NCBI RefSeq assembly: GCF_057098645.1 | Contig: NZ_CM169472.1 | Strand: one strand, 5' to 3' | Length of the DNA stretch: 64,000 bases | In this document: piece by piece, positions 18,792 to 19,780 of the stretch | Position numbering within the stretch: position 1 is the stretch's first letter | Layout: the number at the start of each line of letters is the position of its first letter | Position numbers and translations under genes: made by a program | Notes under the pieces: model-generated | What the model was told of the DNA's origin: nothing | What the model saw: the letters and a program-made list of their open reading frames with translations, nothing else | Database searches by the model: none

Positions 18792-19780
18792 ATGGGTCAA
18801 CTGATTGACGGCGTCTGGCATGACACCTGGTACGATACCAAATCTACCGGCGGTAAATTTCAACGTTCAGCTTCCGCATTTCGTAACTGGCTCACTGCCG
18901 ATGGCGCTCCTGGCCCCACTGGCACAGGCGGTTTTATCGCAGAGAAAGATCGTTATCATCTCTATGTTTCACTCGCCTGCCCGTGGGCGCACCGCACGCT
19001 GATCATGCGCAAACTCAAAGGACTGGAACCGTTTATTTCCGTTTCCGTAGTGAACCCGCTGATGCTGGAAAACGGCTGGACCTTTGATGACAGTTTTCCG
19101 GGAGCAACCGGAGATACGCTCTATCAACATGAATTTCTGTATCAGCTTTATCTCCACGCCGATCCACACTACAGCGGACGAGTTACTGTTCCCGTACTGT
19201 GGGACAAAAAGAACCACACCATCGTCAGCAACGAATCAGCAGAAATCATCCGCATGTTTAATACCGCGTTTGATGCGCTGGGCGCGAAAGCGGGTGATTA
19301 CTACCCACCAGCCCTGCAAACGAAAATTGACGAACTTAAAACGGCTGGATTTATGACACCGTTAACAACGGCGTGTATAAAGCCGGTTTTGCCACCAGCC
19401 AGCAAGCCTACGCCGAGGCGGTGGAAAAAGTGTTTGAATCGCTGGCGCGACTGGAACAGATTTTAGGTCAGCATCGTTACCTGACCGGCAACCAGCTAAC
19501 CGAAGCCGATATTCGCCTGTGGACCACGCTGGTCCGTTTTGATCCAGTGTATGTGACCCACTTCAAGTGTGATAAGCACCGCATCAGCGATTACCTGAAT
19601 CTGTATGGCTTCCTGCGCGATATCTACCAGATGCCGGGAATTGCCGAAACAGTCAATTTCGATCACATCCGTAATCATTACTTCCGCAGCCATAAGACCA
19701 TCAACCCTACGGGGATTATTTCAATTGGTCCGTGGCAGGATCTCGATGAACCGCATGGACGAGATGTTCGCTTCAGTTAA
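18792..19780 (+). pseudogene. yqjG: yqjG (glutathionyl-hydroquinone reductase, Xi-class GST), frameshifted
   Basis: N-terminal 184 codons in one frame (ORF 18771..19466) and the C-terminal part in another (ORF 19373..19780); frames switch at the A-run 19338..19341. Confidence 0.8.

Follow-up and report, generated by a model that had tools for sequence, protein, structure and literature searches.

The DNA analysed here, referred to as the window, is a stretch of 64,000 nucleotides from assembly GCF_057098645.1 (contig NZ_CM169472.1). It carries yqjG between yqjF and yhaH, which is the position of the gene in known E. coli, and the features discussed below are collected in Table 1. A terminator-like hairpin (18754-18766) with a T-run separates yqjF from yqjG, which speaks against simple read-through from the first gene into the second. 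A literature search on a link between YhaJ, yqjF and yqjG returned nothing relevant.

Table 1. Coordinates of the yqjG locus and of other features of the window
Feature	Position	Strand	Description
IS2 in higB	654-1984		1331 bp; target duplication CCTAG at 649-653/1985-1989
yqjF	18330-18722		upstream neighbour of yqjG
Terminator-like hairpin and T-run	18754..18776	+	between yqjF and yqjG
yqjG (probable pseudogene)	18792..19780	+	989 bp, 2 bp more than the intact O145:H28 allele (987 bp); ATG at 18792, TAA at 19778-19780
Open frame from native ATG	18792..19466	+	224 codons, then TAG at 19464-19466; GST_N_2 (residues 62-158) and Cys63
Frame-shifting 2-bp insertion (AA duplication)	19338..19341	+	AAAA; AA in all intact alleles examined
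Out-of-frame remainder	19340..19780	+	YqjG residues 183-328: GST_C helical domain, Tyr195, Tyr253, Tyr296
yhaH (DUF805)	20063-20380		in-frame 48-bp deletion, junction repeat at 20259-20269
Direct repeats	37555-37834		between yhaC and rnpB
yhaV	44932-45396		toxin gene, partner of prlF; internal stop at codon 41

Two additional A residues shift the reading frame of yqjG

Alignment with the closest intact alleles, those of O145 RM9872 and ATCC 8739, revealed a single length difference, the window reading AAAA where both intact alleles read AA. A global alignment with the RM9872 allele contained no substitution across the 989 bases, so that every base other than the two A residues is that of the intact O145:H28 gene. 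When the two A residues were deleted in silico, the sequence became identical to the RM9872 gene and its translation gave the 328-aa protein exactly. In the window, the frame open from the native ATG encodes a product of 224 aa made of 182 native residues and an aberrant tail of 42 residues; codon 183 reads AAA (Lys) in place of the native AAC (Asn), and the junction peptide is ...IDELKTAGFMTPL.... The frame beginning at 19340 reads NGWIYDTVNNGVYKAGF...RDVRFS, which is the C-terminus of YqjG, and an in-frame TAA at 19337-19339 stands just before it.

The original prediction, drawn from the letters of the window, had named the gene yqjG and had proposed two extra A residues at this position, a single 328-codon frame upon their removal and a truncated protein with an aberrant tail. 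The name is borne out by the RefSeq annotation of the matching genes and by the match of the restored protein to solved structures; the extra residues, the restored frame and the truncation were recovered as described above, the first by the comparison with reference strains that had been proposed as a check. Two details need correction. A switch of frame does occur, but the native part ends after codon 182 and not after the 184 codons that had been counted; likewise, the lesion lies where an A-run had been placed, but the wild-type run consists of two A residues only and the term is generous.

The truncated product is predicted to lack the helical C-terminal domain

The protein encoded by the restored frame was compared with the solved E. 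coli YqjG structures (3R3E, 4G0I, 4G0K and 4G0L) and matched over residues 1-327 with an E value of 9e-231. It aligned from end to end with K-12 YqjG, a Xi-class glutathione transferase (GST) acting as glutathionyl-hydroquinone reductase, with four visible substitutions only. The Pfam architecture is also that of known E. coli YqjG, GST_C_2 covering residues 203-259 downstream of GST_N_2, and the break lies between the two domains. NCBIfam gave no match for YqjG or its fragments, and the family assignment was made from Pfam, PDB and RefSeq annotation. Unlike in known YqjG, the two domains of the window are in different frames: the 224-aa product matches GST_N_2 only, and the GST_C families match only the out-of-frame remainder. 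Xi-class enzymes have both domains on one polypeptide, and the 224-aa product does not.

The catalytic Cys63, within the CPWA motif (...SLACPWAHR...), is located upstream of the frameshift and is retained. Tyr195, Tyr253 and Tyr296, which we take to be the E. coli numbering of the tyrosine triad and whose spacing agrees with that in NmGHR, all come after residue 182 and are missing from the 224-aa product. In NmGHR, the archaeal enzyme of Natrialba magadii, the triad is formed by Tyr189, Tyr247 and Tyr290 (PMC6345682). Catalysis by Xi-class GSTs uses a conserved Cys, the substrate site owes its shape to a tyrosine triad of the C-domain helices, a point demonstrated for EcYqjG, and the dimer specific for the class forms via the helical C domain (PMC5063366, PMC6345682). 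Translation from the native ATG would thus produce a thioredoxin-like N domain with Cys63, followed by 42 unrelated residues and a stop, and the product would lack the whole helical C domain, which supplies both the substrate-site tyrosine triad and the interface for Xi-class dimerisation. Because the C domain holds these two elements, the glutathionyl-hydroquinone reductase activity due to yqjG should be lost in the clone, as judged from the domain architecture; the N-terminal fragment might conceivably keep some residual function. YqjG is a non-essential enzyme of detoxification that is induced by stress, its level increasing 3.7-fold, for instance, under vanillin (PMC6561319). Its loss in one clone is unremarkable.

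The allele is found in a small group of closely related assemblies

To determine the distribution of the allele, yqjG was compared by megablast with 5,426 RefSeq complete E. coli genomes. Of these, 5,421 gave a match, and in every case the annotation was yqjG, glutathionyl-hydroquinone reductase. The best 26 matches, which belong to O145:H28 and close relatives, showed 99.8% identity over 987 bp compared to the 989 bp of the window, and the AAAA allele was not found in these complete genomes. A probe of 81 bp with the site at its centre gave no exact match; the top identity across 4,376 genomes was 97.5% and corresponds to the two gaps. Eight additional loci from diverse E. coli all carried AA and none AAAA. 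Searches of the literature for this allele, for 'yqjG pseudogene' and for the accessions of the carriers described below gave no relevant mention.

By contrast with these non-carriers, an exact-sequence look-up recovered the 224-aa product in a public protein collection. It is encoded on 16 contigs, several of which may share one project or outbreak, so that the truly independent isolates number fewer than 16. Among them are contigs of two NCBI drafts, GCA_015672775.1 and GCA_015672865.1, and, from SRA runs of different submitters, contigs of the Logan assemblies of ERR12122442 and SRR26133514. Over 5.4-20.7 kb, the DNA of these carriers matched the window with an identity of 99.97-100%. Both NCBI drafts, whose fetched stretches reach yhaH, have the 48-bp deletion in this gene. 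Identity between O145 RM9872 and the entire window is 99.97%. Truncated forms of YqjG other than this one turn up sporadically in public data for E. coli and Salmonella, where one cluster has 493 partial or truncated members.

Compared to the window, GGG runs of yqjE carry two 1-bp deletions in the Logan assembly of ERR12122442 (window positions 17475 and 17495), and yqjE is annotated there with 110 aa and not with 134; the deletions may stem from errors in the reads or in the assembly. The same assembly still has the yqjG AAAA allele.

Other features of the window

When 65 CDSs of O145 RM9872 were mapped onto the window, a small frameshift was found in yqjG only and in none of the 64 others, which rules out a generally error-prone assembly. 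Two intergenic poly-A tracts, at 20496 and 25947, are one base longer than in RM9872 and C325 (A7 compared to A6 and A9 compared to A8, respectively). Because both lengths recur in an independent assembly, the longer of the NCBI draft carriers, they are real lineage markers and not errors.

Compared to O145 RM9872 and C325, the toxin gene higB is interrupted by an IS2 element with InsC/InsD-like ORFs and 99.6% identity to elements annotated 'IS3-like element IS2 family transposase'. This insertion site was shared by no complete RefSeq genome among the matches listed. The contig of draft GCA_015672775.1 begins at about position 1988 of the window, at the edge of IS2, and this suggests that the carrier clone shares the insertion in higB.

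In yhaH, an in-frame deletion of 48 bp between 11-bp direct repeats CGTGGTGGGCA removes 16 residues (VQFRRLHDTDRSAWWA) and leaves a protein of 105 aa instead of 121. The 105-aa protein is encoded on 193 contigs, and the eight loci that were fetched belong to E. coli 97.4-98.9% identical to the window, all with an intact yqjG. The deletion therefore looks recurrent or spread by recombination. As it occurs in diverse and more distant E. coli with an intact yqjG, it is uninformative as a marker of ancestry and does not date the frameshift. The yqjG frameshift, the IS2 insertion in higB and the yhaH deletion are all present within 20 kb in the same clone.

Three further observations were made in the window and in its closest relative. 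The internal stop of yhaV is common to O145 RM9872, where the gene is annotated as a pseudogene, and the window has an additional G9S substitution. Between yhaC and rnpB, direct repeats of about 167 bp overlap at an offset of 113 bp and are 95% identical; tandem 113-bp repeats are known in E. coli on the 3' side of rnpB. Finally, C325, the closest complete genome, carries a private 2-bp deletion of its own in ygjQ (equivalent to window positions 4487-4488), annotated 'frameshifted'.

Discussion

The reading we favour, with a probability of roughly 93%, is that yqjG was inactivated by a genuine, recent and clone-specific insertion of 2 bp. The change from AA to AAAA would have been inherited vertically within a small E. 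coli clone and would have turned yqjG into a pseudogene. The original prediction had warned that a homopolymer indel could be a sequencing artefact, in which case the true genome would have AA and an intact gene of 328 codons. Such an error would be in keeping with a length change in a mononucleotide run and with the failure to find AAAA in any RefSeq complete E. coli genome. However, the AAAA allele, recognised by its exact 224-aa product, is present on the contigs of NCBI drafts and of independently assembled SRA runs, so that the warning finds no support. Homopolymer sequencing errors are usually gains or losses of one base in long runs, and a gain of two in a run of two is unlike them; the remaining 64 mapped CDSs are free of small frameshifts, and the two poly-A lengths that differ from O145 recur in an independent draft. 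Combined, the identical product and near-identical DNA of the carriers, the clean CDSs and the untypical +2 change lead us to judge the insertion as real and inherited within a small clone, as far as comparison of assemblies can tell, and an artefact as extremely unlikely.

A real insertion may still leave the gene alive if the shift is corrected during expression. Either transcriptional slippage or a -1 shift of the ribosome on CUU-AAA-A would give a protein of 329 aa with one extra Lys, the -1 product having the junction ...IDELKNGWIYD..., and yqjG would be down-tuned rather than dead. A -1 shift after the AAA codon does read AAC-GGC-TGG and regains the native C-terminus, tRNA-Lys is slippery on A-rich sites, and RNA folding of a stretch of 101 nt (z = -2.3) predicts a hairpin at about 19343-19388. 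Being A-rich, read by tRNA-Lys and followed by a predicted hairpin, the site resembles programmed -1 frameshift sites such as that of dnaX (A AAA AAG). It departs from them in lacking a slippery heptamer and conservation, in having a wrong spacer and in descending from a gene that reads through as one unbroken frame. No X XXY YYZ heptamer is present in the zero frame (GAA CUU AAA ACG); the site is U AAA ACG and the P-site codon after a -1 shift would be UAA. The hairpin begins about 2 nt past the run, compared to the 5-9 nt expected of a stimulatory structure, and it consists of ordinary coding sequence; over its first 58 nt, both intact alleles used for the alignment show the same sequence apart from one base. 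Transcriptional slippage is known from runs of about 7-9 A residues, and four are far below this length. Because the frameshift is missing from every other E. coli examined, in the RefSeq complete genomes and at the eight diverse loci, nothing indicates selection as a recoding site, and we regard recoding as exceedingly improbable. The tract of four A residues is also too short for a phase-variable contingency locus, for which about 7 or more would be expected; no intermediate tract length was seen, the four fetched carrier loci all encoding 224 aa and the examined non-carriers all having AA.

The position of the break, exactly between the two Pfam domains with Cys63 and GST_N_2 intact, would also fit a split gene in which a thiol-transferase or reductase function is kept by the thioredoxin-fold fragment at the N-terminus, by itself or together with a C-terminal fragment translated from its own start. 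An ORF of 135 codons beginning with GTG at 19373 keeps Tyr195 and the entire GST_C domain. This GTG is the first in-frame start of the remainder and is not a credible one: no Shine-Dalgarno sequence was seen before it upon inspection by eye, and ribosomes translating the upstream frame terminate at 19466, 93 nt beyond it, which makes translational coupling implausible. The aberrant tail of 42 residues is likely destabilising, and the substrate site and the Xi-type dimer require the C domain on the same chain (PMC5063366, PMC6345682). Furthermore, the lesion is recent and shows no sign of adaptation to a split state. A functional split gene is therefore very unlikely, and we attach an equally slight probability to the broader view that yqjG is partly alive, either by low-level -1 slippage of tRNA-Lys or by a thiol-transferase role of the free Cys63 fragment with its thioredoxin fold. 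If true, a partly alive yqjG would be a naturally occurring Xi-class GST in down-tuned or split form, carried by an O145:H28-like clone.

For the preferred reading, an inactivating insertion, the clone appears very close to O145:H28 as judged from the window, the O-antigen and typing loci being located outside it. The lesion is probably recent because no other change separates the allele from that of O145:H28, and recent as well as private to one clone because AAAA is present in no RefSeq complete E. coli genome examined. It resembles the lineage-specific pseudogenes that arise by small indels in pathogenic clones of E. coli and Shigella: a short single indel, in a non-essential gene, private to a clone and otherwise undecayed. 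Nothing notable sets the yqjG allele apart from these. The gene is well known, and its frameshifted allele is an ordinary strain-specific pseudogene that adds no new type of feature; private small frameshifts of the sort seen in ygjQ of C325 are evidently commonplace in this lineage. We infer that the loss of yqjG is neutral in the clone.

The case provides an example of a short-run indel that resembles an artefact and can yet be recognised as real from independent public assemblies, without reads. The AAAA allele of yqjG cleanly marks a small E. coli clone adjoining O145:H28 but has little import beyond strain typing, and the clone is predicted to live without one glutathione-dependent enzyme of quinone detoxification.
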